This document shows positions 3,488-64,000 of a DNA stretch of 64,000 nucleotides, in pieces. Where the stretch lies: positions 5,431 to 69,430 of the forward strand of contig JAIQFF010000006.1 in NCBI GenBank assembly GCA_020073395.1, in the 5' to 3' direction. The position numbers were made by a program, and so were the translations under genes. Positions within the stretch are counted from its first letter, which is position 1. Each line of letters starts with the position of its first letter. Under the pieces are notes generated by a model that searched no databases, was not told where the DNA came from, and saw nothing but the letters and a program-made list of their open reading frames with translations. The DNA comes from Terriglobia bacterium. Its GTDB lineage: Bacteria > Acidobacteriota > Terriglobia > Terriglobales > Acidobacteriaceae.

Positions 3488-3562
3488 GCGGGCGAAAAGC
3501 CCGCTCGTCGAAGAGGTGGAAGCGGGACGCCTCCACGACAGCCGGCAAGATGCCGGCGCTAC
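3488..3562 (+). repeat. Cluster of three GC-rich hairpins (REP-like), the last sharing a perfect 26-nt repeat with 28616-28641
   Basis: The hairpins are GCGGGC-gaaaa-GCCCGC (3488-3504), GTGGAAGCG-gga-CGCCTCCAC (3516-3536) and GCCGGCA-aga-TGCCGGC (3541-3557). GACAGCCGGCAAGATGCCGGCGCTAC (3537-3562) recurs exactly on the opposite strand at 28616-28641. Confidence 0.8.
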
Positions 3563-3621
3563 AACACAAGTCCACAAGTCGTATAATCACAGGGGCGCAG
3601 CCACGGTCTCCGGAGGCGATC

Positions 3622-4248
3622 ATGTCCCATCGTATTTCGATCGTTTTTCTCTCGGTACTGCTTCTGTCAGTTCTCCATATCCAGGCAAAAGAGAAGAAAA
3701 AGCAGTTGCTCCCGGAAGATGTGCTGAGGGCGCAAACCGTCATGGTGGTGATTCATCCGGATGCGGGCGAGGCTCTGACCGCTCCCTTGGCCAATCGAAA
3801 TGCCCAGGATGAAGTGGAGAGAGCGATCACAAAATGGGGCAGGTTCGATCTGGTGATGGATGCGTACACCGCGGATCTAATTATCGCAGTTCGGAAGGGA
3901 AACAAGAGCGGCCCCATCATTGCCCATTCGCCTGCGGACGACCGACCGGTCATCTTTCAGCCTGGTATTGGTGACGCGCGCATCGGCCAGCAACAAGGTC
4001 GTCCCCCCGATCTGTCTCAGCCCCTTCCTGGCGGGATGGGGAACAGAGGCCCGCAACTCGGCACTCAGATTATTTCGTCTGACGATACCTTTGAAGTGTA
4101 TCGGGGGCGAATGGAGTATCCGCTGGATACGTCGCCGGTCTGGCGCTATATCGCGAAGGACTCGCTGAATGCGCCGCAGGTCCCGGCGGTCGAGCAGTTC
4201 CGCAAGGCCATCGAAGAATCCGAAAAGCAGCGCCAGCACAAACCTTGA
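3622..4248 (+). CDS. Hypothetical secreted protein
   Basis: I moved the start to the ATG at 3622, which is preceded by GGAGG. The N-terminal signal-peptide-like segment is MSHRISIVFLSVLLLSVLHIQA. No recognisable domain. Confidence 0.6.
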   Translation: MSHRISIVFLSVLLLSVLHIQAKEKKKQLLPEDVLRAQTVMVVIHPDAGEALTAPLANRNAQDEVERAITKWGRFDLVMDAYTADLIIAVRKGNKSGPIIAHSPADDRPVIFQPGIGDARIGQQQGRPPDLSQPLPGGMGNRGPQLGTQIISSDDTFEVYRGRMEYPLDTSPVWRYIAKDSLNAPQVPAVEQFRKAIEESEKQRQHKP

Positions 4249-9057: not shown

Positions 9058-12000
9058 ATGAGATGCGCCGAGTCCAGGTGCGACCGCCAGACGTCTTTCG
9101 CTTCCAGGACGTGGTTGATCGCCATCCGGCGCGCCGTGCTTCTCCTGCTGCTCGCCGTCAGCGCGCTGGGGCAGGACGTGGCCGTGCCCCCCAGTTTCTC
9201 GATTACCGGCGTGGTGAAATCGGGTAACACGCCAATCCCAGGCGCAACCGTAAGCGCAACTAACTCTTCCAACGAAACCAAGACTACAACTTCCACGGAT
9301 ACGAATGGTACCTACAGGCTTCAGGTTGCCGCCCCGGGGAAGTATCAGCTGCGAGTTGAGATGCCCGCATTCGCGCCGAGTACGGGGGAAATTGTCCTGG
9401 GTGAGGCAAGCAGTCGCGCCGACCTTGAATTGACGTTGCTCTCGCGGACGCAACAAGCTGAACGCGCCCAGCAGCGACCGGCAACGGCCAGAGCCGGTCG
9501 AGGATTTCAGAGCCTGTCGGTCTTGCAAGGACTGGCCAGCACTGAAGCCAGCAACGGCAGCGGCGCGGACCAGATTGTGCCTGCCGGAATGCCGATCCCG
9601 GGCGTGGCCGCGGACGCTGCTACAGAATCGGTTTCGTTTTCCGGTAGCAACTCAAGCGTGGGCATGTTCGGCATGAGCACCGACGAACTGGAGCAGAGGA
9701 TGCGCGAAGGCCGCGAAGAAGGCGGATTGGGTGGTGGCCCGGGCGGTGGTGGCCCGGGCGGTGGTGGCCCGGGCGGTGGTCTTCCGGGTGGAGGCGGTCC
9801 TGGTGGCAGGTTCGGCGGCTTTGGCGGCGGAGGAGGACGAGGCGGCCCCATGGTCCTGGGCGGGGGGAGAGGCAGATTTGACGTCAATCGACCACACGGT
9901 TCGGCCTTTTACTCAATCGGCGATTCTGCCCTGGATGCCGCGCCTTATGCTCTCAGCAATAGTTCGGTGGACAAAGCCAGCTACACGCGGCAGCGCTTCG
10001 GCGCCTCGCTGGGCGGGCCGCTGAACATCCCGGGAATCTACAAGGGCGGTAGCAAGACTTTTTTCTTTGCGAACTACACCGGCTCACGCGGCGATTCGCC
10101 CTATGACGCTTTTTCCTTTGTGCCCACCGTCGTTGAACGCGGCGGCGTTTTTTCCGGAGTAGCGGGAGTTCAGCTGATCAATCCCAACAACGGGCAGCCC
10201 ATCCCGGGCAACAATTTGCAAAACGCCGGGCTGACCATCAATCCTGCTGCGCAAGGGCTCTTGCAGTACATCCCGTTGCCCAACGTAAACAACACGGCTC
10301 CTGACGCGCCGAACTTTCATTTTGTGACATCGACGCTCAACGATAGCGACGATTTGAATATCCGCCTGAACCAGTCCCTGGGCGCCGCCAGCAACGGCCG
10401 CGGCCGGGGACAGCGCGGCCCGCGAAATAATTTGAATTTCGGCTTTCACTACCACGCCGCCAGTGCGAACCTGACCAATCCTTTTCCCAGCGTGGGCGGC
10501 CATACCAGCACCCGCAGCTTCGACGTGCCCATCGGGTACGTCCGGACCTTTGGCAAAGTGATCAACAATGCGCGCCTCGACTTCAATCGCTCCCGTATCA
10601 GCACGCAAAACCTCTACGCCTTTAACCAGGACATCACTGGAGATCTCGGCATAACGGGCGTCTCTACCAACCCCTTTGACTGGGGCCTGCCCAACCTCTC
10701 GTTCACTCACTTCGGCAGCCTGAACGATACCAACCCGCAATTGCTACGCAACCAGACCTGGACGTTTTCTGACAGCCTGATCTACCGCCGCGGAAAGCAC
10801 ACCTGGCGCTGGGGCGGGGATTTCCGGCGCATTCAGGTGAACACCCAGACCGACAGCAATGCCCGCGGGACTTTCACCTTTACCGGTGTGAACTCAGGTT
10901 ACGACTTTTCCGACTTTCTGCTGGGGCTGCCGCAGTTGACTTCGGTGCAGTTTGGTAACAACAGCTATCATTTTCGCGGCAATTCCTGGGACCTGTTCGT
11001 GCAGGATGAGTGGCGACTGCGCGGCAACCTTACATTGAATCTGGGTGTGCGCTACGAATACATCTCGCCGTTTTCCGAACTGAACGATCGCATTGTGAAT
11101 CTGGACTTGCCGGTGGGCTTTATCTCGCCACCCGTCCCCGTGCAGGTGGGCGAGACCGGGCCGTACAACGGCCAGCTTCCCGTGACCCTGGTGCGCCCCG
11201 ACCGCAATAATTTCGCGCCGCGCCTCGGCCTGGCCTGGAAACCGCTGCGCAACACGGTGGTGCGTGCGGGATATGGCATCAACTACAACACCAGCGCCTA
11301 TCAAAGCATTGTGCAGAACATGGCCTTCCAGCCGCCGTTTTCAACCACGGCGACGGCCACGCAATCGGCGACCACCCAACTCACTCTGCAGGATGGATTT
11401 CCACCCGTCCCTCCCGGTTCCATTACCAACAATTTTGGCGTAGACCCCAATTACCGCCTGGGCTATGTGCAGATCTGGAATGTCGACATTCAACAGCAGA
11501 TTCGGCCCACACTGATCATGAACCTTGACTACACCGGAACCAAAGGCACACGGCTCGACATCCTGGAAGCCCCGAACCGCACCGAGACCGGCGTGCTCTT
11601 TCCCGGGGTGCAGCCGTTTTACTGGGAAGACTCGGTGGGAGATTCGACCGCTAACGCATTGTCAGTCCGCGTCCGCAAACGGCTGCAGGCGGGCTTTTCG
11701 ATTGGCGGCCGCTACACTTTCTCGAAGTCGCTCGATAATGCCTCCACCATCGGAAGCGGCGAGCCCCTGGTCGCGCAGGGCGCGGGACGCACCGCAGTTT
11801 CCGGCACCACCAACGTGGCGCAGAATGCTTTCGACCTTGCCGCCGAGCGGGGCTTGTCCAGCTTCGATCAGCGGCACAGTTTCACCGCTGACTATCTGTG
11901 GGAGCTTCCCTTCGGCCACGACCGGCGCTGGCTCACGGGCAACAGCCCGTTGCGGGCCATCTTCGGAGACTGGAATTGGAGCGGCGACTGGACCATCGCT

Positions 12001-12411
12001 TCGGGGCTGCCCTTCACTCCCCGCATCCTCGGCGACCGGTTGGATGTGAGCCGCGGCACCAACGGCACGGTGCGAGCTGATGTGGTGCCGGGGCAGTCCG
12101 TCAGCCTGCCAAATCCGTCCATCGAAGAGTGGTTCAACACAGCTGCGTTCGTGGCTCCGGCAGGCGCGTTTGGCGATGCGCGCCGCAATAGTATCGAAGG
12201 ACCAGGCAGCCGGAAGGTCGATATGGCATTCACCAAGATTTTTCCCCTCAGCGAAACACGCTTCCTGGAGTTTCGAGCACAGTTCTCGAATATTTTCAAT
12301 ACTCCCCAATATGTTGGGATCGATACAGTCGTGAACTCGCCCACCTACGGCCGGGTGATTTCGGTGGGCGCGATGCGTTCCCTGCAACTGACTGCGAGGT
12401 TCAGATTCTGA
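9058..12411 (+). CDS. Giant outer-membrane receptor-like protein (CarboxypepD_reg-like N-domain + TonB-dependent-receptor-type barrel)
   Basis: 1117 aa with a signal peptide, an ITGVVKSGNTPIPGATVSATN...TDTNGTYRL Ig-like domain, a Gly-rich linker, a long beta-rich region and a terminal ...LQLTARFRF. I did not see a clear TonB box. Confidence 0.8.
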   Translation: MRCAESRCDRQTSFASRTWLIAIRRAVLLLLLAVSALGQDVAVPPSFSITGVVKSGNTPIPGATVSATNSSNETKTTTSTDTNGTYRLQVAAPGKYQLRVEMPAFAPSTGEIVLGEASSRADLELTLLSRTQQAERAQQRPATARAGRGFQSLSVLQGLASTEASNGSGADQIVPAGMPIPGVAADAATESVSFSGSNSSVGMFGMSTDELEQRMREGREEGGLGGGPGGGGPGGGGPGGGLPGGGGPGGRFGGFGGGGGRGGPMVLGGGRGRFDVNRPHGSAFYSIGDSALDAAPYALSNSSVDKASYTRQRFGASLGGPLNIPGIYKGGSKTFFFANYTGSRGDSPYDAFSFVPTVVERGGVFSGVAGVQLINPNNGQPIPGNNLQNAGLTINPAAQGLLQYIPLPNVNNTAPDAPNFHFVTSTLNDSDDLNIRLNQSLGAASNGRGRGQRGPRNNLNFGFHYHAASANLTNPFPSVGGHTSTRSFDVPIGYVRTFGKVINNARLDFNRSRISTQNLYAFNQDITGDLGITGVSTNPFDWGLPNLSFTHFGSLNDTNPQLLRNQTWTFSDSLIYRRGKHTWRWGGDFRRIQVNTQTDSNARGTFTFTGVNSGYDFSDFLLGLPQLTSVQFGNNSYHFRGNSWDLFVQDEWRLRGNLTLNLGVRYEYISPFSELNDRIVNLDLPVGFISPPVPVQVGETGPYNGQLPVTLVRPDRNNFAPRLGLAWKPLRNTVVRAGYGINYNTSAYQSIVQNMAFQPPFSTTATATQSATTQLTLQDGFPPVPPGSITNNFGVDPNYRLGYVQIWNVDIQQQIRPTLIMNLDYTGTKGTRLDILEAPNRTETGVLFPGVQPFYWEDSVGDSTANALSVRVRKRLQAGFSIGGRYTFSKSLDNASTIGSGEPLVAQGAGRTAVSGTTNVAQNAFDLAAERGLSSFDQRHSFTADYLWELPFGHDRRWLTGNSPLRAIFGDWNWSGDWTIASGLPFTPRILGDRLDVSRGTNGTVRADVVPGQSVSLPNPSIEEWFNTAAFVAPAGAFGDARRNSIEGPGSRKVDMAFTKIFPLSETRFLEFRAQFSNIFNTPQYVGIDTVVNSPTYGRVISVGAMRSLQLTARFRF
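9731..9780 (+). repeat. Perfect 15-bp tandem repeat (3.3 copies) inside the OMP gene
   Basis: GTGGTGGCCCGGGCG occurs three times and is followed by GTGGT. It encodes (GGGPG)n within GGLGGGPGGGGPGGGGPGGGLPGGGGPGG. Confidence 0.95.
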
Positions 12412-14534
12412 TGCGCATGGCCACCAATTGCGGGCACAGGTTCTTCCAGAAGACGGGCGAGGACGCCCGTCGCTCCATCCTCGCGTCTCTGCTGGTAGTC
12501 GTGATGCTGTGCACCGGCGTTACTTCGCAGGAATCGTCCAGCGAGTACACCTTCCGCTCCAAGACTGAACTGGTGCTGGTGAATGTGACCGTGCGCGACA
12601 AGAACGGCAATACGGTGCGCGACTTGAGGCGCGAAGACTTTACCCTTCTCGAAGATAACAGGCCGCAGCAGGTGCTCTCTTTCGATCTGGAAAATACCGA
12701 TGCCGTGCTTTCAACTGCCGCCACCGAAGCGCCGTTGCTTCGCCCGGTTCAACCGCAGACCACAGACGCGACCGCCACCCTCGCAACCCGCCCGCTGAAA
12801 GACCGGCGGCTGATCATCCTGTTTTTTGATCTCAGCTCCATGCAACCGGGTGAAGTTGACCAGGCGACGACCGCGGCCCAGAACTATGTGGACAAGCAGA
12901 TGGTGGCCGCCGACCTGGTGGCCGTGGTCTCGCTGGGCAGCACGCTAAGCGTGAATCAGGATTTCACTTCCGATCGGGCGCTGCTGAAGAAAGCGCTGCA
13001 GGCCTTCAATCTTGGCTCCGGCGCGGGCTTCGAAGAAGGCAGCACGGGCACAACCGAAGGCACATCCGAAACCGGCGGGTCGTTCACCGTGGACGACACC
13101 GAGTACAACATCTTCAACACCGATCGCCGGCTGCAGGCCCTGCGCTCGATCGCCGACAAGCTGGGGACGATCAATGAAAAGAAATCTCTGATCTATTTCT
13201 CCAGCGGCATGGACCGCACCGGCATCGAGAACCAGTCGCAGCTGCGTTCCGCGACCAACGCCGCAGTGCGGGCCAATATGGCCATTTACACCATGGATAT
13301 TCGCGGCCTGCAGGCCCTGGTGCCAGGCGGCGAAGCCCAGAATGCCAGCTTGCGCGGGACTTCACCTTACTCCGGGAAGTCCGTGGCCGGCCAGTTCGAT
13401 TCCAATGCCACCACCCAGGAAACGCTGGTCACCCTGGCTGGCGACACCGGCGGGCGCGCATTTCTCGACTCGAACGATTTTGGCAGGGTGTTTACCGGCG
13501 TGCAGCAGGACACTTCGCTGTACTACCTTCTGGGGTATCACAGCACGAATTCGGCGCGGGACGGGCGCTTCCGGCGGATCACCGTCAGGGTCAACCGGCC
13601 CGGTGTCAAGATCGACTTCCGCCGCGGCTACTACGCTCCCGCCGACTTCCAGCATTCCACCCGCGACGATCGCGAACGCCAGCTGGACGAAGAGCTGGCC
13701 TCAGATCTCCCGACCACCGATTTGCCGGTATATTTGTCCGCCGCCTACTTCCGCATCGCTGACCGCAAATTTTATGTGCCCGTGTCAGTGGTCGTGCCCG
13801 GTTCCCAGATTCCTTTCACCCACAACAACGACCAGGACCGCGCCACGCTGGATGTTCTGGGCATCGTGACCGATCCGGAGAAGCGTCCGGTGGGTCAGAT
13901 ACGGGACACGGTCAAGCTGGCGCTGAACACATCGCAGCTGGTAGAACGCAAGAACGTGCAATACAACAGCGGTTTCGTCCTGCCACCCGGCACCTATCAT
14001 CTCAAGTTTGTGGTGCGCGAGAACCAGAGCGGGCGACTGGGCTCATTCGAAACCGATCTCACCGTACCCGACCTGAAATCGGTCCCGGTAAAGATGAGTT
14101 CGATTGTGCTGGCAAACCAGTTGCAGCCGGCCGGCAAGCACAAGAGCGACAACCCGCTGGTGCGCGATGGGTCAGAGGTAATTCCCAGCGTCACTCATGT
14201 GTTCTCCGCCGGCCAGCACCTGTACTTCTACTACGAGGTCTATGACCCGGCGCATGGGGCCACAAATACCAACGCGCCCGCGAATGATCGCAGCAGTCCG
14301 GCCATCCGCCTGCTGACCAATGTCGCGTTCTTCCGCGGAAATACCAAGGCGTATGAGACTCCGCTAGTCGAGAGCGAGCAACTGAATGCGCCCGACCGCA
14401 AGGCTGCGGTTTTCCAGCTTGACGTGCCGCTTACCCAGCTCAAACCCGGTTTCTACACCTGCCAGGTCAATGTGATTGACGATGCCGCCGGACAGTTCCG
14501 CTTCCCGCGCGTGGCATTATTAGTACGCCAATAG
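12411..14534 (+). CDS. VWA-domain protein of the acidobacterial VWFA-related family (TIGR03436-like)
   Basis: The block FRSKTELVLVNVTVRDKNGNTVRDLRREDFTLLEDNRPQQV is typical of this family, followed by VWA-like LIILFFDLSSM / SLIYFSSG motifs. The start overlaps the stop of the OMP gene (TGATG). Confidence 0.8.
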   Translation: MRMATNCGHRFFQKTGEDARRSILASLLVVVMLCTGVTSQESSSEYTFRSKTELVLVNVTVRDKNGNTVRDLRREDFTLLEDNRPQQVLSFDLENTDAVLSTAATEAPLLRPVQPQTTDATATLATRPLKDRRLIILFFDLSSMQPGEVDQATTAAQNYVDKQMVAADLVAVVSLGSTLSVNQDFTSDRALLKKALQAFNLGSGAGFEEGSTGTTEGTSETGGSFTVDDTEYNIFNTDRRLQALRSIADKLGTINEKKSLIYFSSGMDRTGIENQSQLRSATNAAVRANMAIYTMDIRGLQALVPGGEAQNASLRGTSPYSGKSVAGQFDSNATTQETLVTLAGDTGGRAFLDSNDFGRVFTGVQQDTSLYYLLGYHSTNSARDGRFRRITVRVNRPGVKIDFRRGYYAPADFQHSTRDDRERQLDEELASDLPTTDLPVYLSAAYFRIADRKFYVPVSVVVPGSQIPFTHNNDQDRATLDVLGIVTDPEKRPVGQIRDTVKLALNTSQLVERKNVQYNSGFVLPPGTYHLKFVVRENQSGRLGSFETDLTVPDLKSVPVKMSSIVLANQLQPAGKHKSDNPLVRDGSEVIPSVTHVFSAGQHLYFYYEVYDPAHGATNTNAPANDRSSPAIRLLTNVAFFRGNTKAYETPLVESEQLNAPDRKAAVFQLDVPLTQLKPGFYTCQVNVIDDAAGQFRFPRVALLVRQ

Positions 14535-15836: not shown

Positions 15837-15898
15837 AGAAAATCTGAGCGATGATTGACCCGTCCAAGAGCGACCGCTTAGAGTCATGAAGGTCCTAA

Positions 15899-15917
15899 GT
15901 TGCAACCGGTTTGCAAC
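15899..15917 (+). promoter_or_regulatory. Candidate operator 22 nt upstream of the OMP start
   Basis: GTTGCAACCGGTTTGCAAC has the same arms as 15212-15230 and 15818-15836. Confidence 0.45.
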
Positions 15918-15939
15918 TACGGACGGCCTAATCCCCTCT

Positions 15940-16797
15940 ATGAGACCAGTCGTGGTTCTCTGTCTGTTTGTCGCGGTTTTCATTGGCGCCTCCCGGGCGC
16001 AGGAACGGCCCTACTTCGTCACCTATTCTCATGAAATGGAAGAGCCGGGGAATCTCGAAATCGAGTTCTTCAGCGTGCTGGGAAAGCCGCCAGCCGGAAA
16101 CCGGTTTATTGGCAGCAATATTGAGTTCGAGTATGGCGTCACCGCCTGGTGGACGTCAGAGTTTTATCTCGACGGCCAGATAACGCAGCACGACAGCACC
16201 ATCTTTACCGGCTACCGTTGGGAAAACCGCTTTCGCCCTTTGTTGCGTGAACACTGGATCAATCCCGTGATCTACATCGAATTTGAAAATACCAGCGCGG
16301 ACAAAGCCCTGCGCGAAGTAGTCGGCCACGACGGCAGGGATGATTTTCTCGAGTCCAATGCGGCGGCCCGGCAGGACAAAGAAAGAGAACTGGAGCTCAA
16401 GCTGATTCTGGGCAGCAACTATCACGGATGGAACATCAGCGAAAACATCATCGCGGAGAAGAATCTTTCCAACGAGCCTTGGGAATTTGGATACGCCGTA
16501 GCCGCAAGCCGTCCGTTGAGCCTGGCGGCGAGCGCTCACAACTGCACGTTCTGCGGCGAGAAATTTCAAGCTGGAGCTGAGATGTATGGCGGGTTGGGAG
16601 ACCGCTACAGCTTTGGCACACACCTGACATCGCACTATCTGGGTCCTTTGATCAACTGGGAAGGGCCTAACGGGATGACGCTCTCGTTCTCTCCCCAGTT
16701 TGGGTTGAACAACTACAGCATTCCGCGCTTGTACCGCTTTGGAGTTTCCTACGAGATCGACCAGCTCTTCAGCCGATTTCATCGGGGTGCCCCATGA
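15940..16797 (+). CDS. Hypothetical secreted / outer-membrane protein
   Basis: The internal ATG at 15940 yields the signal peptide MRPVVVLCLFVAVFIGASRAQE. The sequence is beta-rich and aromatic-rich. The 3' end overlaps the cytochrome c gene by 4 nt. Confidence 0.6.
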   Translation: MRPVVVLCLFVAVFIGASRAQERPYFVTYSHEMEEPGNLEIEFFSVLGKPPAGNRFIGSNIEFEYGVTAWWTSEFYLDGQITQHDSTIFTGYRWENRFRPLLREHWINPVIYIEFENTSADKALREVVGHDGRDDFLESNAAARQDKERELELKLILGSNYHGWNISENIIAEKNLSNEPWEFGYAVAASRPLSLAASAHNCTFCGEKFQAGAEMYGGLGDRYSFGTHLTSHYLGPLINWEGPNGMTLSFSPQFGLNNYSIPRLYRFGVSYEIDQLFSRFHRGAP

Positions 16798-26480: not shown

Positions 26481-27303
26481 ACCAGAAAGCCAGAAACGCT
26501 ACCGTGATGAATAGAGCCAGCATCGCCCAGTCAAACCAGTTGGTCCGGAATTCGTCCAGCACATACACTTCGCCTTGAAAGCCACGCGAACGCATAGCCA
26601 GGTACACATCGCCGCTGAGCTGAATTGTTTTGGACATCAGCACGCCCACGCTGGCCGTGGCCGCCCGTCGCTGCTCCGGGCCATCGAGACGGCCCACGAT
26701 GCGGCTCTTGCGGGAGGTGAACATGTCATGGGCATTTCGCAGCAACAGAAAAATATAGCGATAGGTCATGCCCAGGACCACCACCAGTACCACCGGCAAC
26801 CGGAGCACGCGCAGCGCTTTGAGGACGTTGCTCCAGGGAGTGCAGAGCACCAGCAGAACCGAAAAAGTCGCAGCCGTCTCCGCCCGCATGATGAGGTAGA
26901 TGGCGGCGCGCAATCCCTGTGCAGTGACGGTCCAGCCGAGAAGCGGCAAACTGGAGATTGCCGGGCCGGGTGTGAGGAACAAAGCCGGGAACGAGATGAA
27001 TCCAGTGAATGTGAGCACGCCTAACCAGACTCTCCTGGCCAGCGTACCCAAAGGAACACTTGAGAGCAAAGCTATGGCGACCGCCAAGGCAAAAAGAACG
27101 GCGATCACCCACAACCGGCGCGCCAGCGCCGCGATGACGATCAGAGGCAAGATCGCCACAATTTTGACTCGCGGGTCAAGCTTTTGTAGCAGGCCGTTTT
27201 TCTTGGCCAGCTCCTCGGCATAGAACGCGTGCTCCAGGGCATCAACAAAAGACGCAAGACTACGCTCGACTACTCCGCGCGAGTTTTTTCCGGCGCGAGT
27301 CAT
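26470..27303 (-). CDS. cbiQ: ECF-transporter T component (CbiQ/NikQ type)
   Basis: 277-aa polytopic protein between the M and O components, overlapping both neighbours. Confidence 0.75.
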   Translation of the reverse strand: MTRAGKNSRGVVERSLASFVDALEHAFYAEELAKKNGLLQKLDPRVKIVAILPLIVIAALARRLWVIAVLFALAVAIALLSSVPLGTLARRVWLGVLTFTGFISFPALFLTPGPAISSLPLLGWTVTAQGLRAAIYLIMRAETAATFSVLLVLCTPWSNVLKALRVLRLPVVLVVVLGMTYRYIFLLLRNAHDMFTSRKSRIVGRLDGPEQRRAATASVGVLMSKTIQLSGDVYLAMRSRGFQGEVYVLDEFRTNWFDWAMLALFITVAFLAFWFGR

Positions 27304-28391
27304 GGCGAAGTCCCGGAATCAACTGAGCCGCGCTTGCCGATCATCCAGCCCATGAACAAGAAGAACCCAAGAATCAGGCCGCAGCCGAACATGGCTGACA
27401 TCACATAGCCAAAAGCAGGATGGTGCACAAATGGAGGAGCATACTTTGGAAAAGGCGCGCTCCATAAAGAAGAGAGTCGCGCCAGCCCCCTCGGCTGTTC
27501 GGAGGGAGGCGCGACCTGGCCTGAGGCGGCCGTGATCTGCCGCCGCATTTGCGCATCGGAAAAATCTTTCGCCTCCCATTCCCCCCAGGCCGTACCCGCC
27601 GCCAGAATTCCGAGAGGGGTCAGAAGCATGAGCAGAGCTAGACGAATCCAAAGCGGGCGGGTCGTCTTCCAACCCGAGGCTGCGGCCGGCGAGGCATCCT
27701 CCTTAGCGCCGGCAGCAGATCTCTGTCCCAGCAATGCAGGATTCGTACGCTGCAAATAAGCAACCACTCCGCCCGCCACGAACAGTTCCGCCAATCCAGC
27801 GAAAGTCAGATGGCCCAGCATCATCGCAGGAATCGCGATGTGGAGCGCATAGGGGGCATACAGAGGAGCGCCGCTCGCGTCCTTGAAGAACAGCGGCTGA
27901 ATTCCCAACTCGAATGCGGTAAGAAGTGCCGCAACGTTGATAGCTGTATACCCTGCCAGCGCTGCGGCGATAACTCGTCGCGAGGACGTGACCGCCGTCC
28001 GGCCTGCCACCGCCCGGTAGGTGAAATGCGCGACCAGGGAACCCACAATCGCCATGTTGAAACTGTTGGCGCCGAAGGTGGTGATTCCGCCGTCTCCAAA
28101 AAACACTGCCTGGATCAGCAACGCAATCGATACCGAGAGCATGGATGCCCAGGGCCCAAGCACGACGGTCGCCGCCCCCACTCCCACCGCATGCCCCGTA
28201 GTCCCGCCCGGGAGGGGAACGTTAAACATCATGATGACAAAACAGAACGCGCTGGCCACCGCAAGCAGCGGTACCAGGCGCGTGTTCATCAGTCGCTTGA
28301 CGCGAGCGAACGCCGTGTACCAGAAGGGTATCGCGGTGCCGTAGAGCAGGGCGCAAGTCGAAGGACTCAGATAGCCGTCAGGAATGTGCAT
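27300..28391 (-). CDS. cbiM: Cobalt/nickel ECF substrate component CbiM/NikM fused to a CbiN/PDGLE-like C-terminal segment
   Basis: The N-terminus MHIPDGYLSP is the CbiM/NikM signature. The C-terminal extension carries LLTPLGILAAGTAWGEWE (PDGLE-like). Confidence 0.85.
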   Translation of the reverse strand: MHIPDGYLSPSTCALLYGTAIPFWYTAFARVKRLMNTRLVPLLAVASAFCFVIMMFNVPLPGGTTGHAVGVGAATVVLGPWASMLSVSIALLIQAVFFGDGGITTFGANSFNMAIVGSLVAHFTYRAVAGRTAVTSSRRVIAAALAGYTAINVAALLTAFELGIQPLFFKDASGAPLYAPYALHIAIPAMMLGHLTFAGLAELFVAGGVVAYLQRTNPALLGQRSAAGAKEDASPAAASGWKTTRPLWIRLALLMLLTPLGILAAGTAWGEWEAKDFSDAQMRRQITAASGQVAPPSEQPRGLARLSSLWSAPFPKYAPPFVHHPAFGYVMSAMFGCGLILGFFLFMGWMIGKRGSVDSGTSP

Positions 28392-42351: not shown

Positions 42352-44806
42352 TTACTCGTATCTCAAGGCCACCATGGGATCAACCTTCGCCGCGCGACGC
42401 GCGGGAATGTAGCTGGCAAGCAAGGCCACAGCCAGAAGCAAGAGTGCGGCCTCGGTCAGTGTGGCTGGGTCATTTGGCTTTATTCCAAACAGCAGCGCGC
42501 CAATCCATCGAGCAGCAACCAGCGAACAGAAAGTGCCGGCGACAGCGCCGCCGGCAATCCATACCAGCGTCTGGAACACCATGACTCTGGTGACAGTAGC
42601 CGGGTTCGCGCCCAGCGCCAGACGAATGGCAATTTCCCGGATGCGCTGGCTCACCAGCAAGGAAACCAGGCCGAAGATACCCACTGCCGCGAGAAGCAGG
42701 CCGATCGCGGCAAATAGCGAAAGCAGAGCAGCCGTAAATCGGGGACGCTCCGCGAGCCGATACACGGTTTGACCCAGGGTGCTTGACTCCAGGGGCAACG
42801 TCGGGTCAAGCGCCGCGACGGAGTCTCGTATTTCTTTGGCTACCGTCTGGGGATCAATTGCACTGCGTACCACCATGCTGATGCGCTGAGAGTCTAGATA
42901 ATTGAAGATGCGGTCGTTCGCGCTGTGACTGCGAACTAGGTAATATTCGGGACCTATGTGTCCGCCGAGCCCCTGATTTTGCGTGTTGGCAGTCACACCT
43001 ACGATTCTGAACGTGGCAGCGTCGCGCACTTCGTCGGAACTAAAGTGGATGGTCTTGCCCACCGGGTCCTGGCCGGGAAAGAGGCGTTGAGCCAGGGCTT
43101 GGTTAAGGATCATGGCGTCATACGCTGAGGTGCGGTCCTGTTCCTCAAAGGCCCGTCCGCGCAGCAGAGGAATGCCCAGTACCGAGAAATATTTCGGCGT
43201 CACAGATCTCCAACTCACGATTCCACCAATGCCCTGGTCAGGGCTGAGAGGCGGTTGCCCTTCCGCTTCGAGCGCAACCAACGGCATCGTGCGCGCCGGG
43301 GTCTCAGGGGGGAGCGAGTCACTGAGGGCAGCCGCCGCGACACCGGGCAATTGCTGGAGTTTGTTCCAGTTGCTCGAAGAATGCAAGGCGCTGTGCCGGT
43401 TGAGCATATTTTTCCTGCCCAAGCGTGATCGCCGCCGTAACAATATTTTGCGTATTCATCCCCAACGGCTGGACCTCGAGGTTGCGAAGAGTCCGCAGGA
43501 ACAGCAGCGCACCCGTAACCAGAATAAGAGTCATGCAAACCTGAGCAGCCATCAGAGCCTTTCGCAGGTTGCTTCGCCGTGTGCCGGCCACAGTCATGGC
43601 CACCAGAGCTTCCGGGCGTGGCTTTTCCAGCGCGGGTAAAGTGCCAAAAACAACTCCGGCAGCGCTCGACGACAGAAGCGCGAAGATCAGGGCCCTGACG
43701 TTTACCATCGCCTCCGGCAAGCGTGGTATTCCTGCCGGGGAAAGAGCGACGAAGCCATGAACAATCAGGTAAGCAAGCCCACATCCGATTGCGCCTCCAA
43801 CCAGTGCGAGCAGCATGCTTTCTGTGAGCCTTTGCTGAAACAGGCGAAGGCGGGCGGCGCCGAGCGCAGACCGGACCGCAAGCTCGTGTCGCCGCCCCGT
43901 GCTGCGGGCAAATACGAGGTTGGCCACATTGGCGCAGGCGATTAGCAGGCCCGCAAGGGCCGAGACCAGCAGGAACCAGGCCGCGCGACGGGAGTCATGA
44001 ATCTGCAAATCGCGTATGGAGCGGACCTGAAGCCGCAGTTCTTTTCGAAACGGAGGCGGCGCGGATTCCACAAAGGTCCGAAACAAAAGCGGCAACTGCG
44101 CTACCGCCGCGTCGATGCTGACGCCTGGTTTCAGGCGTCCGTACACGCGGACCGTCGGTCCCATCAAATTACGTTGCACAATGGATTCATCGAGGGCCTC
44201 GGGCACGACCAGCCCTGTACCGGCCAGCGTCGGAAATTCAAAGTCACGCGGCAACACTCCCAAGACCCGTGTTGGCTTTCCATCAACCGAAATCGTGCGA
44301 TCAACAATGCCGCGATCGCCTCCAAACCGGCTTTGCCATATTCCATACGAGAGCAATGCGACTTTGGGAGAATCGGGGCGATCCTCTTCCGGCGTGAAGT
44401 TCCGGCCCAGGATGGGTTGCACACCGAAGGTAGACAGGAAGGTGGACGCTACGGACGCGCAGCTTGATCGGACGGGGCGGTCATCGGTGAGATCACAATC
44501 GTTCACGCCAGTGGACGACGTGAAGTTCGCGAACGGAGTTTGATCGCGCCTCCACGACAGATAATTCGCCGCAAAGAGAAACTCGCCGTCAATAATAGGA
44601 GCGATGACTCCGACGGAAACCAACTGCTCAGCGTGGGGATAGCGCAAGCCGCGGAAGAGCGCGCCGTCCACCAAACTGAACATCGCAGTAGTTGCGCCGA
44701 TCCCTAGCGACAATGTGAACACGGCGACCGAAGTGAATCCCGGGCTCTTGCGCAGTTGCCGCAGAGCGTAGCGAATGTCCTGGAGCAGGCCGGTCATCCT
44801 GTTCAT
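42352..44806 (-). pseudogene. ADOP-family permease, copy 4, interrupted by a frameshift near 43360
   Basis: The N-terminal ORF (44806-43319, [22 protein letters not shown]...AFFEQLEQ) and the C-terminal ORF (43443-42352, ...LQQLPGVAAAAL...[10 protein letters not shown]) together cover one ADOP gene in two frames. The frames cross at GAACAAACTCCAG (plus-strand TTT at 43360-43362). Confidence 0.75.
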
Positions 44807-60189: not shown

Positions 60190-60815
60190 GTGTCCGGTTC
60201 CTATGACGGCTGTTCGGAAATGGACAGAATCTGCGGCTTCAATCAACTGCTTGACCTGCGCGACCTGGTCACGGGAGTTCACAGCACCCGCCTGGCAGAA
60301 TGGGCGGTTCGGGTGCGCGCAAGCTGGGACTTCCTGAAACCGGGCTCTATCAGATCGAAGTCGCGGCGCTGCTGCACGACATCGGGAAAATTGATATTCC
60401 CGACGCCATCTTGAAAAAAGAGGGCAAGCTCACCGACTCCGAGCGCGAGCTGATGAACAAACATCCGGAACATAGCTGGTCGATCCTGCGCCTGCTTCCC
60501 GGTTTGGAGAAAGCCAGCCTCTATGCTCTCCATCATCACGAGAGTTTCAATGGATCAAGATACCCGGCCGGAATGAAGGGCGAGGAGATTCTGATCGGAT
60601 CGCGCATCGTTTCCGTCATAGACGCGTACGACGCCATGATCTCCAATCGTTGCTGCCGCCGTGGACTCTCCCATGAAGAAGCCGTCCGGCACCTCCTGGA
60701 GGGCGGCGGCACGCAGTTTGATTCCGCCGTGGTACAAACCTTCGTGGAAATCGCCAAGGAAGAAGTCGCCGACGTCTTCGCCGCCACCGGAGTCGGCCCC
60801 ACCGCCGTCATCTAA
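60190..60815 (+). pseudogene. HD-GYP domain protein with an apparent 1-nt frameshift near 60300-60325 (alternatively a truncated 171-aa CDS from 60300)
   Basis: The frame from the GTG at 60190 (AGGAG 5 nt upstream) encodes LLDLRDLVTGVHSTRLAEWAVRV, the usual start of HD-GYP domains. The domain continues in another frame as ARKLGLPE...LLHDIGKI...HHHESFNGSRYPAG to the stop at 60815. Confidence 0.55.
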
Positions 60816-60876: not shown

Positions 60877-61923
60877 ATGCCTGGCTCCGATCCAACCCAA
60901 CCCGACGCAACTGGATCGGACTCCACTACCCGAGGTCGCTTAAAAGTATTTCTAGGCTACGCGTCCGGTGTGGGCAAGTCCTTCCGCATGTTTGACGAAG
61001 CGCGGCGGCGCAAGGAACGCGGGCAGGATGTCGTAGTCGGTGCACTCCAGCCCGACGTCCCGCAGGAACTCAAGCCTCTCCTGAGTGCTCTCGAAATTGT
61101 CCCCACCATCGATGTGGAGGGCGTGCCCATCATTGATGTTCCCGCCATTCTGCGCCGTCATCCCCAGGTTTGTCTGGTCGATGGGCTGGCGTACGACAAC
61201 CCCTGGAGCCGCAACCCATACCGCTGGCAAGATGTCGAGGAGCTGATGGCGCACGGGATCAACGTCGTCGGATCGGTGAATCTTCAGCACATCGCCGACC
61301 AGCGCGAGGCCGTGGAAAAGCTGACCGGCAGGCCAGTGAAAGAAACCATTCCCCGGGAGTTTCTTAACAAGGCGGATGAGATCGTGGTCGTCGATGCCCC
61401 CACCGAAGGAGCGCCGCCAGAGCTCTCGGCGCTGCGGGAGATGGCGCTCGTTCTTACCGCCGATGTGATTGACTCCGGACTGCAACGCTATTTGCAGGCC
61501 CACGATATCGAGCCCGTGTCCCAGGCACAGGAGCGCTTCCTGATCTGCCTGACACCGCGCACGAACACCGATCGTATGATCGCAAGCGCCCGTCAGAGCG
61601 CAGCCCGCTTTCATTGCGACGTTCTCGCCATTTATGTGCGACAGCCGAAATCCTCAGAACAGGACCACGCAGAAATGGAAGAAAAACTGGCCCAGGCTCG
61701 CGCGGCCGGCGCCCGGGTGGATGTATTGGAGTCCGACGATCCCATCGAATCCATCGTGCAGTATGCACGCTCCCACGGGGTCACGCAGATTTTTGTGGGA
61801 CACAGCATGAAGAAGGATTGGAGGGCGCGCCTGTGGGGAACCAGCGTGAGCCGTCTGATCCGGGCTGCTGCCGGTATGGACGTTCGTGTCTTTCCACACT
61901 CGGCGAAAGGCAAAATGCCATGA
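60877..61923 (+). CDS. KdpD N-terminal sensor-like domain + USP domain protein (no kinase part)
   Basis: GRLKVFLGYASGVGKSFRMFDEARRRKERGQDVVVG (KdpD-N P-loop-like block), then a USP-like half (ERFLICLTPRTN...VTQIFVGHS). Confidence 0.8.
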   Translation: MPGSDPTQPDATGSDSTTRGRLKVFLGYASGVGKSFRMFDEARRRKERGQDVVVGALQPDVPQELKPLLSALEIVPTIDVEGVPIIDVPAILRRHPQVCLVDGLAYDNPWSRNPYRWQDVEELMAHGINVVGSVNLQHIADQREAVEKLTGRPVKETIPREFLNKADEIVVVDAPTEGAPPELSALREMALVLTADVIDSGLQRYLQAHDIEPVSQAQERFLICLTPRTNTDRMIASARQSAARFHCDVLAIYVRQPKSSEQDHAEMEEKLAQARAAGARVDVLESDDPIESIVQYARSHGVTQIFVGHSMKKDWRARLWGTSVSRLIRAAAGMDVRVFPHSAKGKMP

Positions 61924-64000
61924 CTCATCTAACGGTTGGAGGCCACCTCAAGATCTATCTTGGCTATGCCCCCGGTGTCGGGAAAACGTATCAGATGCTC
62001 GAAGACGCACGGGAGTTGAACGCACGCGGAGCGGATTTGGTGATCGGATGTGTGGATTCACACGGGCGCACCGACATTCGCGAACGGCTTGAGGGGCTGG
62101 AGACCATTCACCTGAAACGGGTCGTAAACCGCGGCGGCACGGCCGAGGAGCTGGATGTCGATGCGGTCTTGCGGAGGAGCCCGCGAGTTTGTGTGGTGGA
62201 CGAACTGGCGCATTCAAACGCTCCCGGCTCCGAGCGGCAAAAACGTTGGCAGGACGTTGAGGTGCTGCTCCACGCGGGCATCGAAATTCTCACCACCATG
62301 AATGTGCAGGACCTGGCCAGCCTCAGCGACCAGATCTGGCAACTGACTGGGCTCCGCGTCCGTGAGACCGTGCCGGATTGGCTTTTTCAGCAGGCCGATG
62401 AGGTTGTGATTGTGGATGTCACGCCACGGGCGCTGCTTCACCGCCTGGAACGCGGTGTGATCTATCCTTCGGAAAAGGCCAGGAGCGAGTCAGGACGGAT
62501 CTTTCAGGAACCGGTTCTGGTGGCCTTGCGGGAACTTGCGATTCGCCAGACCGCCCAGGCGCTCGAAGCGCGACAAACGGGCAAGGCCCAGCTGCCGGAA
62601 TCGCAAGCGGAGAAAATCCTGGTCAACGTCACTGCTGACCCGTCAACCGCCATGTTGTTGCGCCGGGCAAGGCGGGTGGCCGATCATCTGCAAGCCGTCT
62701 GCATCGCGGTGTACATCCATTCCAAGGAAGAATCGTCCGCCGTGCCTGCGGAGGACCGCCCGACGGTTGATCGCCACCTCCGGTTTGCCGAGAACCTGCA
62801 CATTCCTACTGAGATCATTCACGGCAAAAACCGCGCCGAAGCGCTGGTTGATTACGCGCGAAAAAAAGGCGTGACCCAACTCTTCCTGACTCGCGGCCCG
62901 AAACCTCAGAGACGCTGGTTTCCTGGCCTGGACTTTACTGACCAGGTCCTGCAGCAGGCAAGCGAGATGGAAGTCGCAGTCGTTGCTGAACGAAGCCGCC
63001 ATGGCCTGGCCGCATCCCCCTATCCGGAAGATGAGGCGGGCGCGCTCATGCATGCCGGCTACGTCAAGATCTCGCCCGACGCAACCGTGGAAGAAGCTAT
63101 CGCCGAGACCCGCCAACAGGCGGGACAGGTGGAGATGATTTATTACGCCTACGCTCTTGACGAATCAGGGCATCTGTTGGGGGTGGTTTCATTCCGCGAA
63201 CTTCTTTCCGCTGAAAGGTCGCGAAAAGTTCGGGAGGTGATGCGTACCGACTATGTTCACGTCGTAGAAGATGATGACCAGGAGACTGTCGCGCAACTGC
63301 TGGCCAAGCACCGTTTGCTGGCCGTACCCGTACTGGATCCGGACGGGCACATGGTGGGCATTGTCACCAGCGCCGATGTTGCCGGCCTGGTTCAGCAGGA
63401 GGCCGGAGAGGACATCCTGAAAATTGGCGGTATGGAGGCGCTGGACGGCCCCTACCTGGAAGTGACGTTCGGTCAGATGGTGCGCAAACGGGCGGGATGG
63501 CTCGCCATTCTGTTCGTGGGCGAGATGCTGACTGCCACCGCCATGGGATTCTTTTCCACGGAAATCGAGCGCGCCGTCGTGCTCGCCCTCTTTATTCCAC
63601 TCATCATCAGCAGCGGGGGGAACTCGGGCTCGCAAGCTACAACTCTGGTCATCCGGGCAATGGCGTTAGGGGAAATTCGACTGCGGGACTGGTGGCGCGT
63701 CATTCGGCGGGAATTGGCGGCAGGGCTTACATTGGGGACTATCCTTGGCGTCATCGGAATATCGCGGATTTTTCTCTGGCATACACTGCGTGGAACATAC
63801 GGGCCCCACTACGGAGTGGTTGCCCTCACGATTGGATGCAGCCTCATTGGGGTCGTGATGTTCGGCACCACCGCGGGATCGATGTTGCCTTTCATACTCC
63901 GCCGCTGCGGTCTTGATCCCGCCAGCGCATCGGCTCCCTTCGTCGCTACCTTGGTTGATGTCACGGGACTGATCATTTACTTCTCGGTTGCCAGCGTCAT
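61920..64000 (+). CDS. mgtE: Fusion protein: KdpD-N + USP + CBS pair + MgtE membrane domain, 3' end cut by the window edge
   Basis: This ORF is not in the supplied track because it has no stop inside the window. I translated it by hand from the ATG at 61920 (ATGA overlap with the upstream stop) and found no in-frame stop to 64000 (693 codons). It encodes HLKIYLGYAPGVGKTYQMLEDAREL (KdpD-N) and a USP half (EKILVNVTADPS...VTQLFLTRG). A CBS pair follows (MHAGYVKISPDATVEEAI...LLAVPVLDPDGHMVGIVTSADV). The MgtE signatures are FIPLIISSGGNSGSQATTLVIRAMALGEI and SAPFVATLVDVTGLIIYF. Confidence 0.85.
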   Translation, partial: MTHLTVGGHLKIYLGYAPGVGKTYQMLEDARELNARGADLVIGCVDSHGRTDIRERLEGLETIHLKRVVNRGGTAEELDVDAVLRRSPRVCVVDELAHSNAPGSERQKRWQDVEVLLHAGIEILTTMNVQDLASLSDQIWQLTGLRVRETVPDWLFQQADEVVIVDVTPRALLHRLERGVIYPSEKARSESGRIFQEPVLVALRELAIRQTAQALEARQTGKAQLPESQAEKILVNVTADPSTAMLLRRARRVADHLQAVCIAVYIHSKEESSAVPAEDRPTVDRHLRFAENLHIPTEIIHGKNRAEALVDYARKKGVTQLFLTRGPKPQRRWFPGLDFTDQVLQQASEMEVAVVAERSRHGLAASPYPEDEAGALMHAGYVKISPDATVEEAIAETRQQAGQVEMIYYAYALDESGHLLGVVSFRELLSAERSRKVREVMRTDYVHVVEDDDQETVAQLLAKHRLLAVPVLDPDGHMVGIVTSADVAGLVQQEAGEDILKIGGMEALDGPYLEVTFGQMVRKRAGWLAILFVGEMLTATAMGFFSTEIERAVVLALFIPLIISSGGNSGSQATTLVIRAMALGEIRLRDWWRVIRRELAAGLTLGTILGVIGISRIFLWHTLRGTYGPHYGVVALTIGCSLIGVVMFGTTAGSMLPFILRRCGLDPASASAPFVATLVDVTGLIIYFSVASV

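Follow-up and report, generated by a model that had tools for sequence, protein, structure and literature searches.

A conserved two-gene cassette joins a KdpD-type N-terminal module to the CBS and pore domains of the magnesium channel MgtE

We analysed a 64,000-nucleotide stretch of DNA from a Terriglobia bacterium (contig JAIQFF010000006.1, positions 5,431 to 69,430; hereafter the window), at the 3' end of which a single gene, here called the fusion, joins the N-terminal P-loop domain of the sensor kinase KdpD (KdpD-N) and a KdpD-type USP domain to the CBS pair and transmembrane (TM) pore domain of the Mg2+ channel MgtE. From the ATG at 61920 the open reading frame (ORF) reaches position 63998 of 64000, with 693 codons and no stop, as the original prediction, made from the bare sequence, had claimed. 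Since full-length relatives are 699-700 amino acids long and end in ...SVASVILRGILL, the window copy is short of about 7 C-terminal codons. The start is supported by an M-T-H-L-T N-terminus kept in other species and by the Pfam KdpD match, which begins at residue 8, equal to model position 3; the start codon overlaps the stop of an upstream paralogue (ATGA, 61920-61923). The frame is also open for 102 further codons 5' of the conserved ATG, overlapping the paralogue (window ~61614-61919, and L001-L003, L008, L012, L014 and L020, L numbers denoting loci that carry the fusion), and longest-ORF calling consequently gives a spurious fusion protein of 802 amino acids. The features of the locus are, with residues numbered in the fusion protein:

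60877..61923 (+): stand-alone KdpD-N/USP paralogue, 348 amino acids; Pfam KdpD E=1.5e-50, Usp E=7e-05
61920..64000 (+): fusion ORF, KdpD-N - USP - CBS pair - MgtE TM domain; continues for ~7 codons past the window end
61941..62561 (+): KdpD N-terminal P-loop domain (atypical serine kinase fold), residues 8-214; Pfam PF02702 E=8e-81
61962..61991 (+): Walker A GYAPGVGKT (residues 15-23) and Y24, equivalent to E. coli KdpD G30-T38 and W39
62199..62204 (+): Walker B D94-E95, equivalent to E. coli D109/E110
62442..62444 (+): R175, equivalent to E. coli R190 (adenine coordination); invariant in 40/40 species
62607..62984 (+): KdpD-type USP domain, residues 230-355; matches NCBIfam KdpD models and structure 7ji4
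62985..63044 (+): linker and junction AERSRHGLAASPYPEDEAGA, residues 356-375; 20 conserved amino acids
63045..63419 (+): CBS pair, residues 376-500; Pfam CBS, two stretches, E=9e-19
63468..63998 (+): MgtE transmembrane pore domain, five predicted TM helices, residues 517-693

E. coli numbers refer to the KdpD N-terminal sequence of that species; the sequence used matches the published G36/K37/T38/W39, D109/E110 and R190 as well as the alignment to structure 2r8r.

The original prediction had read residues ~1-215 as KdpD-N, ~230-355 as a USP fold and, after a linker of about 20 residues, ~376-495 as a CBS pair followed by the MgtE pore region; the Pfam KdpD, CBS and MgtE models all supported this order, and the motif positions given (GYAPGVGKT at 15-23, SSGGNSGSQ at 564-572 and PFVATLVDVTGLIIYF at 673-688) were correct throughout. 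KdpD-N matched the P. syringae structure 2r8r both in sequence (residues 7-214, E=7e-61) and, by Foldseek, in the predicted model (TM-score 0.93, rmsd 2.1). The USP assignment held in part: the Pfam Usp model gave no match to the fusion at E<=0.01, but NCBIfam KdpD_non_kinase spans residues 8-357 and thus the USP region too, and the USP domain of S. aureus KdpD (7ji4), a weak match in sequence (E=0.0018), was recovered by Foldseek with a TM-score of 0.82. The predicted structure was an AlphaFold2 (AF2) monomer built on a hybrid alignment (pLDDT 85, pTM 0.53); a first AF2 model from a shallow family alignment reached a pLDDT of 59 and was not used.

The MgtE part is assigned with high scores. 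Pfam PF01769 matched residues 559-690 (E=6e-38), and TIGR00400 (mgtE) aligned residues 368-692 with model positions 128-444 of 450 at 280.3 bits, above its cut-off of 232.75. Residues 364-697 align with T. thermophilus MgtE (TtMgtE; 2yvx) from native residue ~125 onwards (E=4e-73), and Foldseek matched the TM domain to 4u9l (TM-score 0.92) and the CBS pair, plug helix and pore to full-length MgtE 2zy9 (E=1e-28). The MgtE N-domain (MgtE_N, PF03448) gave no match in the fusion at E<=0.01. The exchange lies exactly at the N/CBS boundary, where the TIGR00400 alignment opens at model position 128 and KdpD-N and USP stand instead, which bears out the claim that the MgtE N-domain has been replaced. 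The linker segment YPEDEAG resembles the TtMgtE segment ahead of CBS1 (YEEDEAG, in the alignment to 2yvx); the linker has a mean conservation of 0.90 and a non-synonymous rate (dN) near 0 in several pairs, and its residues 357-366 are predicted to be disordered. PF03448 is retained by all 8 other long MgtE relatives examined, and the long-N-terminus relatives taken up as candidates for the same phenomenon (P0129, P0138, P0140, P0144, P0177, P0190 and P0238) were set aside, all of them keeping MgtE_N. From KdpD only the N-terminal half is present: the Pfam search gave no HisKA, HATPase_c or DUF4118 match in the fusion, and the KdpD histidine kinase model NF007793 aligned over positions 22-376 of 895 at 280 bits, below its cut-off of 1123. 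NF038185, the model of stand-alone KdpD-N/USP proteins, aligned over positions 19-372 of 373 at 297 bits, likewise below its cut-off of 550.

The architecture recurs widely within one lineage. In a search of a 5.8-billion-protein collection (sources NCBI, JGI, ENA and Logan), all of the best 120 clusters at 90% identity carried it, at 74-99% identity, the total of carriers exceeding 120 clusters. A junction-specific alignment scan of 185,579 species genomes found 39 fusion loci, each from a species-level metagenome-assembled genome (MAG). By their record titles, from which all taxon names here are taken, the hosts are mostly Terriglobia, Terriglobales, Acidobacteriaceae, Ca. Sulfotelmatobacter and Ca. 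Acidoferrales/Acidoferrum. Four SMAG bins titled Candidatus Saccharimonadales, Dormiibacterota or Eisenbacteria (L030, L034, L036 and L037) hold an Acidoferrales-type cassette at 63-67% identity; mis-binning or mislabelling is a more likely cause than transfer between phyla. A HMMER search of 1.84 billion representatives at 50% identity returned one collinear full-length fusion (P0121) and otherwise fragments, in a search where any second fusion at least 30% identical in both halves would score far above the listed cut-off. With a single cluster at 50% identity, the fusion is thus one lineage-specific invention, abundant in soils and narrow in sequence space.

Every domain is under purifying selection. 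Computed against ten relatives, the ratio of non-synonymous to synonymous rates (dN/dS) is 0.01-0.04 for the plug and TM part, which is also the best conserved (mean conservation 0.95), 0.08-0.14 for KdpD-N, 0.05-0.13 for USP and 0.06-0.16 for the CBS pair. The junction is no assembly artefact, because the same frame recurs across species, the linker is conserved and the GC content is uniform across the USP/CBS boundary (0.60 vs 0.59). A stop or frameshift at that boundary, named beforehand as an observation that would overturn the fusion, did not appear: the frame is uninterrupted in the 39 species-level genomes. As to the further doubt, that the architecture might be common and already annotated, it occurs in at least 39 uncultured species under a generic name, is restricted to one lineage, and no description of it was found. 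Named relatives (Terriglobales and Acidobacteriia MAGs in NCBI and JGI) are annotated only as 'magnesium transporter', and a literature search on MgtE and KdpD gave no paper on a KdpD-N/USP-MgtE fusion, in agreement with the original prediction, which knew of no described example. As far as shown, the fusion is present and generically named in databases, and undescribed in the literature searched.

The fusion does not occur alone. In 42/42 loci, tblastn placed the KdpD-N/USP paralogue directly upstream on the same strand, and the two genes diverge in step from locus to locus (64-99% identity each); besides the paralogue, no neighbouring gene is conserved around the fusion loci. The paralogue is only ~32% identical to the N-module of its own fusion, and its Pfam KdpD match is limited to model positions 2-165 of 210. 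It keeps Walker A as GVGKS; the position of E. coli E110 is G in 39/39, and the loop with R190 (the L191/G194/Y197 segment) is deleted in 40/40. Judged from these degenerate catalytic residues it is a putative pseudo-kinase, with a dN/dS of 0.08-0.14. Single-chain tandem proteins with two KdpD-N-USP units, ~735-825 amino acids long, make up ~23 of the top 150 clusters at 50% identity (examples are P0123-P0128, P0132, P0163, P0176-P0179 and P0197), and in several of them one half lacks the Walker A Lys or reads D-D or D-G at Walker B. The existence of these chains, often with one half degenerate, suggests that modules of this kind work in twos. These ~23 proteins, with KdpD-N at ~400-750, had at first been candidates for fusions in reversed order, a reading dropped once they mapped as tandems lacking CBS and MgtE. 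An HD_5/HD-GYP-like ORF of 171 amino acids (window 60300-60815 (+), model positions 29-170 only) lies 5' of the paralogue. It was rejected as a part of the cassette, being confined to the nearest relatives and fragmented there; in L001-L003 gene callers split it into pieces of 152, 80 and 59 amino acids, and it is probably a decaying gene outside the cassette.

The surroundings of several loci point to a Kdp ancestry. Two loci, L012 and L014, have beside the cassette another pair of KdpD-N/USP genes, this one unfused; in L012 it closes a kdpA-kdpB-kdpC operon whose KdpB carries the target motif ITGES(188)APV. The first protein of the unfused pair is degenerate and 50% identical to the paralogue, while the second is complete and shares 49% identity with the N-module of the fusion. 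In L039 kdpABC, a gene for a KdpE-like regulator and a homologue of the K+ importer KimA precede the cassette, and no other KdpD-N gene is present in the 20-kb locus. The features concerned are:

L012 4136-12074 (-): kdpABC operon closed by a KdpD-N/USP pair; first member degenerate (GKS, D-G, R190 loop deleted), second catalytically complete
L014 11530-15327 (-): kdpABC operon end with a pair of the same kind
L039 6263-8131 (+): full-length homologue of the KimA-type K+ importer; PDB 6s3k E=3e-111

Given an unfused pair at a kdp operon that is 49-50% identical to the cassette, the cassette is best read as a duplicate of the regulator pair of the Kdp operon, the second gene of which acquired CBS-MgtE. 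The KdpD variants described in the section consulted of the 2024 KdpD paper do not include such a pairing of pseudo-kinase and kinase behind kdpABC. The methyltransferase gene between kdpC and the KdpD-N/USP pair in L012 and L014 is a side observation, as is the position of the KimA homologue of L039 between the KdpE-like regulator and the cassette, where it forms a K+-homeostasis island with kdpABC. Among the loci this homologue is found in L039 only, and a cluster of 607-amino-acid neighbours taken up as further KimA candidates proved to be TypA/BipA. Elsewhere, kdpABC lies downstream of the cassette in L033, and in L007, L022 and L023 the cassette is adjoined by DUF4118-HisKA-HATPase kinases that match the C-terminal half of KdpD best, the one in L007 standing 3' of the fusion on the same strand. 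Counting both kinds of neighbour, kdpABC and KdpD-C kinases, 7/39 loci show one at a distance of up to 10 kb, where ~0.4% would be expected per genome with a single kdp locus. In the window itself no kdp genes were seen among the ORFs surveyed. The obligate paralogue and the kdp linkage widen the reading from a re-gated channel to a two-gene cassette derived from Kdp.

To read the channel part we used the Mg-site definitions of Maruyama et al. (PMC5882242), who assign physiological closure of MgtE to Mg4, Mg5 and Mg7; a deltaN mutant is also reported to lose Mg2+-dependent control (PMC5529423). We surveyed 116 members of the fusion family against a control of 50 canonical MgtE representatives. 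The pore is invariant in 116/116, namely D432->D680 (Mg1, nucleotides 63957-63959), N329->N568, E359->E598 and A428->A676, and so are the acids of Mg2/Mg3 on the plug helix (E258->E497, D259->D498) and the CBS-side ligand of Mg4 (D247->D486). The N-domain ligand of Mg4, D91, is gone together with the N-domain, as are Mg6 (D95) and Mg7 (E59). At Mg5 the charge is reversed: D226 is replaced by R465 (R in 109 members, H in 4, K in 3), a position that is D/N in 43/50 canonical MgtEs, and D250 by G489 in 116/116, a position that is D/E in 44/50. The CBS residues among these (R465/G489, D486, E497/D498) were confirmed on the window sequence. The equivalents of the CBS ATP site are kept as Y409, R426 and E427 (Y170, R187 and D188 in TtMgtE); its changes F227->L and N203->H/R were discarded as a signal, since canonical MgtEs vary likewise. 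Since Mg5 is lost along with Mg6, Mg7 and one half of Mg4, little is left of the canonical Mg2+ clamp beside an intact pore, so that a different gating input is plausible.

The KdpD-N domain of E. coli acts as an atypical serine kinase on S162 of KdpB; the residues that serve it are Walker A, the adenine pair W39/R190 and Walker B D109/E110, and E110A kills activity (PMC11018627). The window protein carries this set as GYAPGVGKT, Y24, D94-E95 and R175. Across 40/40 species of the family the equivalents of G36/K37/T38, W39 (as Y), D109, H113, R124, W125, R163, E164 and R190 are invariant. The E110 position, in contrast, varies (E in 23, D in 15 and Q in 2 of the 40), with E in the clade of the window, Q in L017 and L024 and D in all 15 of the deeper-branching, Acidoferrales-type clade. 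Invariant ATP-binding residues beside a variable catalytic Glu suggest that ATP binding, and not necessarily catalysis, is the conserved property, and favour a sensing or regulatory role of the module.

The nature of the signal was also considered. The original prediction took the fused module for a K+/nucleotide/turgor-type sensor, and the K+/turgor part of this did not hold: KdpD-N is a serine kinase, and the K+ sites proposed for KdpD lie in a TM/GAF region absent here (PMC11018627). The related claim of an Mg2+ channel gated by a different signal is plausible as far as the loss of the clamp sites goes, and falls where it names K+ or turgor sensed through KdpD-N. Cyclic di-AMP (c-di-AMP) was set aside as a conceivable but unsupported ligand candidate. 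Its motif in KdpD-USP, (A/G/C)-x-S-x-S-x2-N-(Y/F), comprises S244, S246, Y248 and N249 in S. aureus KdpD (PMC8214093); in a register set by the 7ji4 alignment (CIAVY = FTAIY), the fusion has N236, T238, D240, S242 and T243 and lacks the motif, which was derived from Firmicutes. A hand alignment gave the same negative for the paralogue, and a riboswitch search covering the window and four kdp-linked loci detected neither ydaO/kimA nor M-box elements.

Taken together, we favour the reading that the fusion is a functional MgtE-type Mg2+ channel gated by its KdpD-N/USP module, with the degenerate paralogue as the second part of a cassette, to which we give a rough and tentative probability of 0.45. 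From the conserved residues we infer that the protein would have channel activity and would bind ATP; the formation of a heteromer with the paralogue and the gating of the MgtE pore by the module are proposed on the same footing. The dimeric pore and the plug-proximal sites Mg2 and Mg3 would act as in canonical MgtE, while the cytosolic clamp of low Mg2+ affinity, formed by the N-domain with Mg4, Mg5 and Mg7, would be replaced by the KdpD-N/USP module, probably as a heteromer with the paralogue. The nucleotide-bound, possibly phosphotransfer, state of the module would then control the CBS/plug gate, and Mg2+ entry could thereby be coupled to the energy or K+-status signals that control KdpFABC. 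A physiological rationale is provided by the antagonism of K+ influx and loss of Mg2+ in osmoadaptation, a process limited by re-import through MgtE (PMC8844918).

Several points weigh against this proposal. All hosts are uncultured MAGs. The AF2 monomer, with a pTM of 0.53, offers no support for a contact between the module and the CBS ring, and the predicted flexibility of the USP-CBS linker would equally suit a merely tethered enzyme. The complete catalytic set of the window protein (D94-E95) is just as compatible with a kinase output. As to the ligand, the c-di-AMP motif is absent and the riboswitch search in the window and the four kdp-linked loci was negative. Kdp neighbours are missing in 32/39 loci, and the window is without kdp genes. 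Finally, the cytosolic Mg2+ sites vary among MgtE homologues (PMC10200709), so that others could exist.

The alternative that survives best, which we nevertheless hold to be unlikely, is that of a kinase tethered to a channel. Here the main output would be phosphorylation of the KdpB S162 equivalent or of another target, the CBS and TM domains would serve as anchor and Mg2+ sensor, and K+ pumping would be throttled by Mg2+ flux or status; channel activity is compatible with it. The full set of Walker A, Y24, D94-E95 and R175 in the window protein speaks for it, as does the descent of the cassette from a pair at the kdpABC end, with the ITGES(188)APV motif in the KdpB of L012. In L039, moreover, the cassette that lies 3' of kdpABC, the KdpE-like gene and the KimA gene holds the only KdpD-N genes of the 20-kb locus, and in L007 the fusion and the KdpD-C-type kinase that follows it resemble a split KdpD. 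The kinase domain of E. coli KdpD is itself membrane-tethered and controlled by the membrane domain (PMC11018627). Nevertheless, all of the Acidoferrales-type clade has D in place of the catalytic Glu, and L017 and L024 have Q; in E. coli E110A abolishes activity, the substitution there being to Ala rather than to D or Q. L012 and L014 already own a dedicated unfused pair beside kdpABC, 32/39 loci have no Kdp neighbour, and the residues of the pore are the most constrained of all, beyond what an anchor needs.

The gated channel and the tethered kinase are compatible, and their combination would be a bacterial Mg2+ channel-kinase, in which KdpD-N, catalytically active and attached to a conducting pore, would act together with the pseudo-kinase to phosphorylate KdpB or its own channel. 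One membrane complex would in this way exert reciprocal control over K+ pumping and Mg2+ entry. We regard this combined form as a rather improbable one. If true, it would be the functional counterpart of TRPM6/7 in prokaryotes, and the KdpD-type atypical serine kinase would gain its first substrate or context outside KdpD. TRPM6 and TRPM7 are eukaryotic channels for divalent cations (Mg2+) whose polypeptide also contains an atypical Ser/Thr kinase domain. TRPM7 has been termed an 'ion-channel kinase' (PMC3435302). The likeness is one of analogy only, there being no homology in channel or kinase, and the kinase domain of the fusion is N-terminal.

A more sober explanation, with a decidedly low probability, is that the module, as an accessory ATP-sensing head, does no more than refine the known ATP dependence of an otherwise ordinary MgtE, the channel still being gated by cytosolic Mg2+ at other sites and having no functional link to K+ or Kdp. 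Canonical MgtE is already modulated by ATP through its CBS domain, which tunes Mg2+ affinity (PMC5529423), and the fusion keeps the equivalents of Y170, R187 and D188 together with the Mg2 and Mg3 sites, while most loci, the window included, have no Kdp genes nearby. This explanation nevertheless leaves three observations unaccounted for: the obligate degenerate paralogue (42/42 loci), the Kdp linkage (7/39 loci against ~0.4% expected within +/-10 kb) and the specific charge reversal at Mg5. Lastly, a mis-assembly or read-through of a KdpD-N/USP gene and an N-truncated mgtE, or a decaying pseudogene, is next to incredible, its sole formal point being that the window stops ahead of the stop codon of the fusion, against an identical unbroken frame and junction in 39 independent genomes at species level and, from metagenomes, in over 120 clusters, dN/dS of 0.01-0.16 in all domains, a conserved linker and even GC over the junction.

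The fusion differs from each of the systems it resembles. With the Mg2+-gated T. thermophilus MgtE (2yvx/2zy9/5x9h; N-CBS-TM) it shares the CBS pair, the plug helix, the five-helix pore, Mg1-Mg3, D247 and the Y/R of the ATP site, but it lacks MgtE_N, Mg5, Mg6, Mg7 and half of Mg4, and has instead a KdpD-N/USP module of 360 amino acids and an obligate partner. With KdpD-N of E. coli (PMC11018627; structure 2r8r from P. syringae) it has in common the fold, Walker A, the aromatic residue, the Walker B D-E and the R190 equivalent; unlike KdpD, it is without the 4-TM/GAF/DHp-CA half, has a channel in its place and varies in the catalytic Glu across the family. The 'KdpD-like non-kinase potassium sensor' proteins of NF038185 align end to end with residues 8-357, whereas the fusion scores below the cut-off of that model, is joined to CBS-MgtE and does not show the c-di-AMP motif. 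A short KdpD composed of KdpD-N/USP only is known from Deinococcus geothermalis, where it is a c-di-AMP-stimulated atypical serine kinase (PMC11018627). The closest unfused relatives of the N-module are the KdpD-N/USP proteins of the kdpABC end (second protein of the L012 pair, 49% identity). Among the MgtE classes N-CBS-TM, CBS-TM, TM, TM-TM and mini-N (Zhao et al. 2025, bioRxiv 10.1101/2025.05.26.656215), which rest on InterPro proxies for TM, CBS and N, the fusion would count as 'CBS-TM'; that MgtE survey makes no mention of KdpD, Usp or kinase domains. Likewise, no channel fusion is described among the variants in the available portion of the 2024 KdpD survey.

MgtE is the textbook Mg2+-gated Mg2+ channel, and its N-domain with Mg4, Mg5 and Mg7 is the accepted closure sensor. 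In the fusion, which occurs naturally and is strongly conserved, this sensor has been swapped for the module recently shown to act as post-translational off-switch of the K+ pump KdpFABC. The link between K+ and Mg2+ is so far physiological only, osmoadaptation of B. subtilis being an example. Should the module gate the pore, or the kinase be regulated by the pore, the cassette would be direct molecular evidence of a hard-wired cross-regulation of the two ions, and the reach of the KdpD-N atypical serine kinase would be extended beyond KdpD. Furthermore, the pairing of a putatively active with a degenerate KdpD-N would be a recurring one: the cassette has it in two genes, the tandem proteins in a single chain, and it also closes kdp operons.

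The remainder of the window holds other transport and signalling genes; the ORFs surveyed include no corA, no mgtA and no gene for a c-di-AMP enzyme. Its further features are:

705-3431 (-): Ser/Thr protein kinase with PD40 repeats, 908 amino acids
17611-25130 (+): HlyD gene and two tandem AcrB-type RND pumps
27300-28391 (-): CbiM-PDGLE cobalt-uptake protein with ABC ATPase

Three ORFs on the plus strand at 3550-4248, 12411-14534 and 15886-16797 (232, 707 and 303 amino acids) had no Pfam match at E<=1e-5, the one of 707 amino acids lying directly 3' of a gene for a TonB-dependent-receptor-like outer-membrane barrel of 1117 amino acids (9058-12411). At 34914-60067, on both strands, at least 8 MacB_PCD/FtsX duplicated-permease paralogues of ~810-876 amino acids stand amid ABC ATPase, HlyD and OEP genes. 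The overlapping ORFs 42352-43443 (363 amino acids) and 43319-44806 (495 amino acids) resemble the two parts of a single permease of this kind, broken by a frameshift. The kinase/PD40, RND pump and CbiM-PDGLE genes are typical Acidobacteria content.

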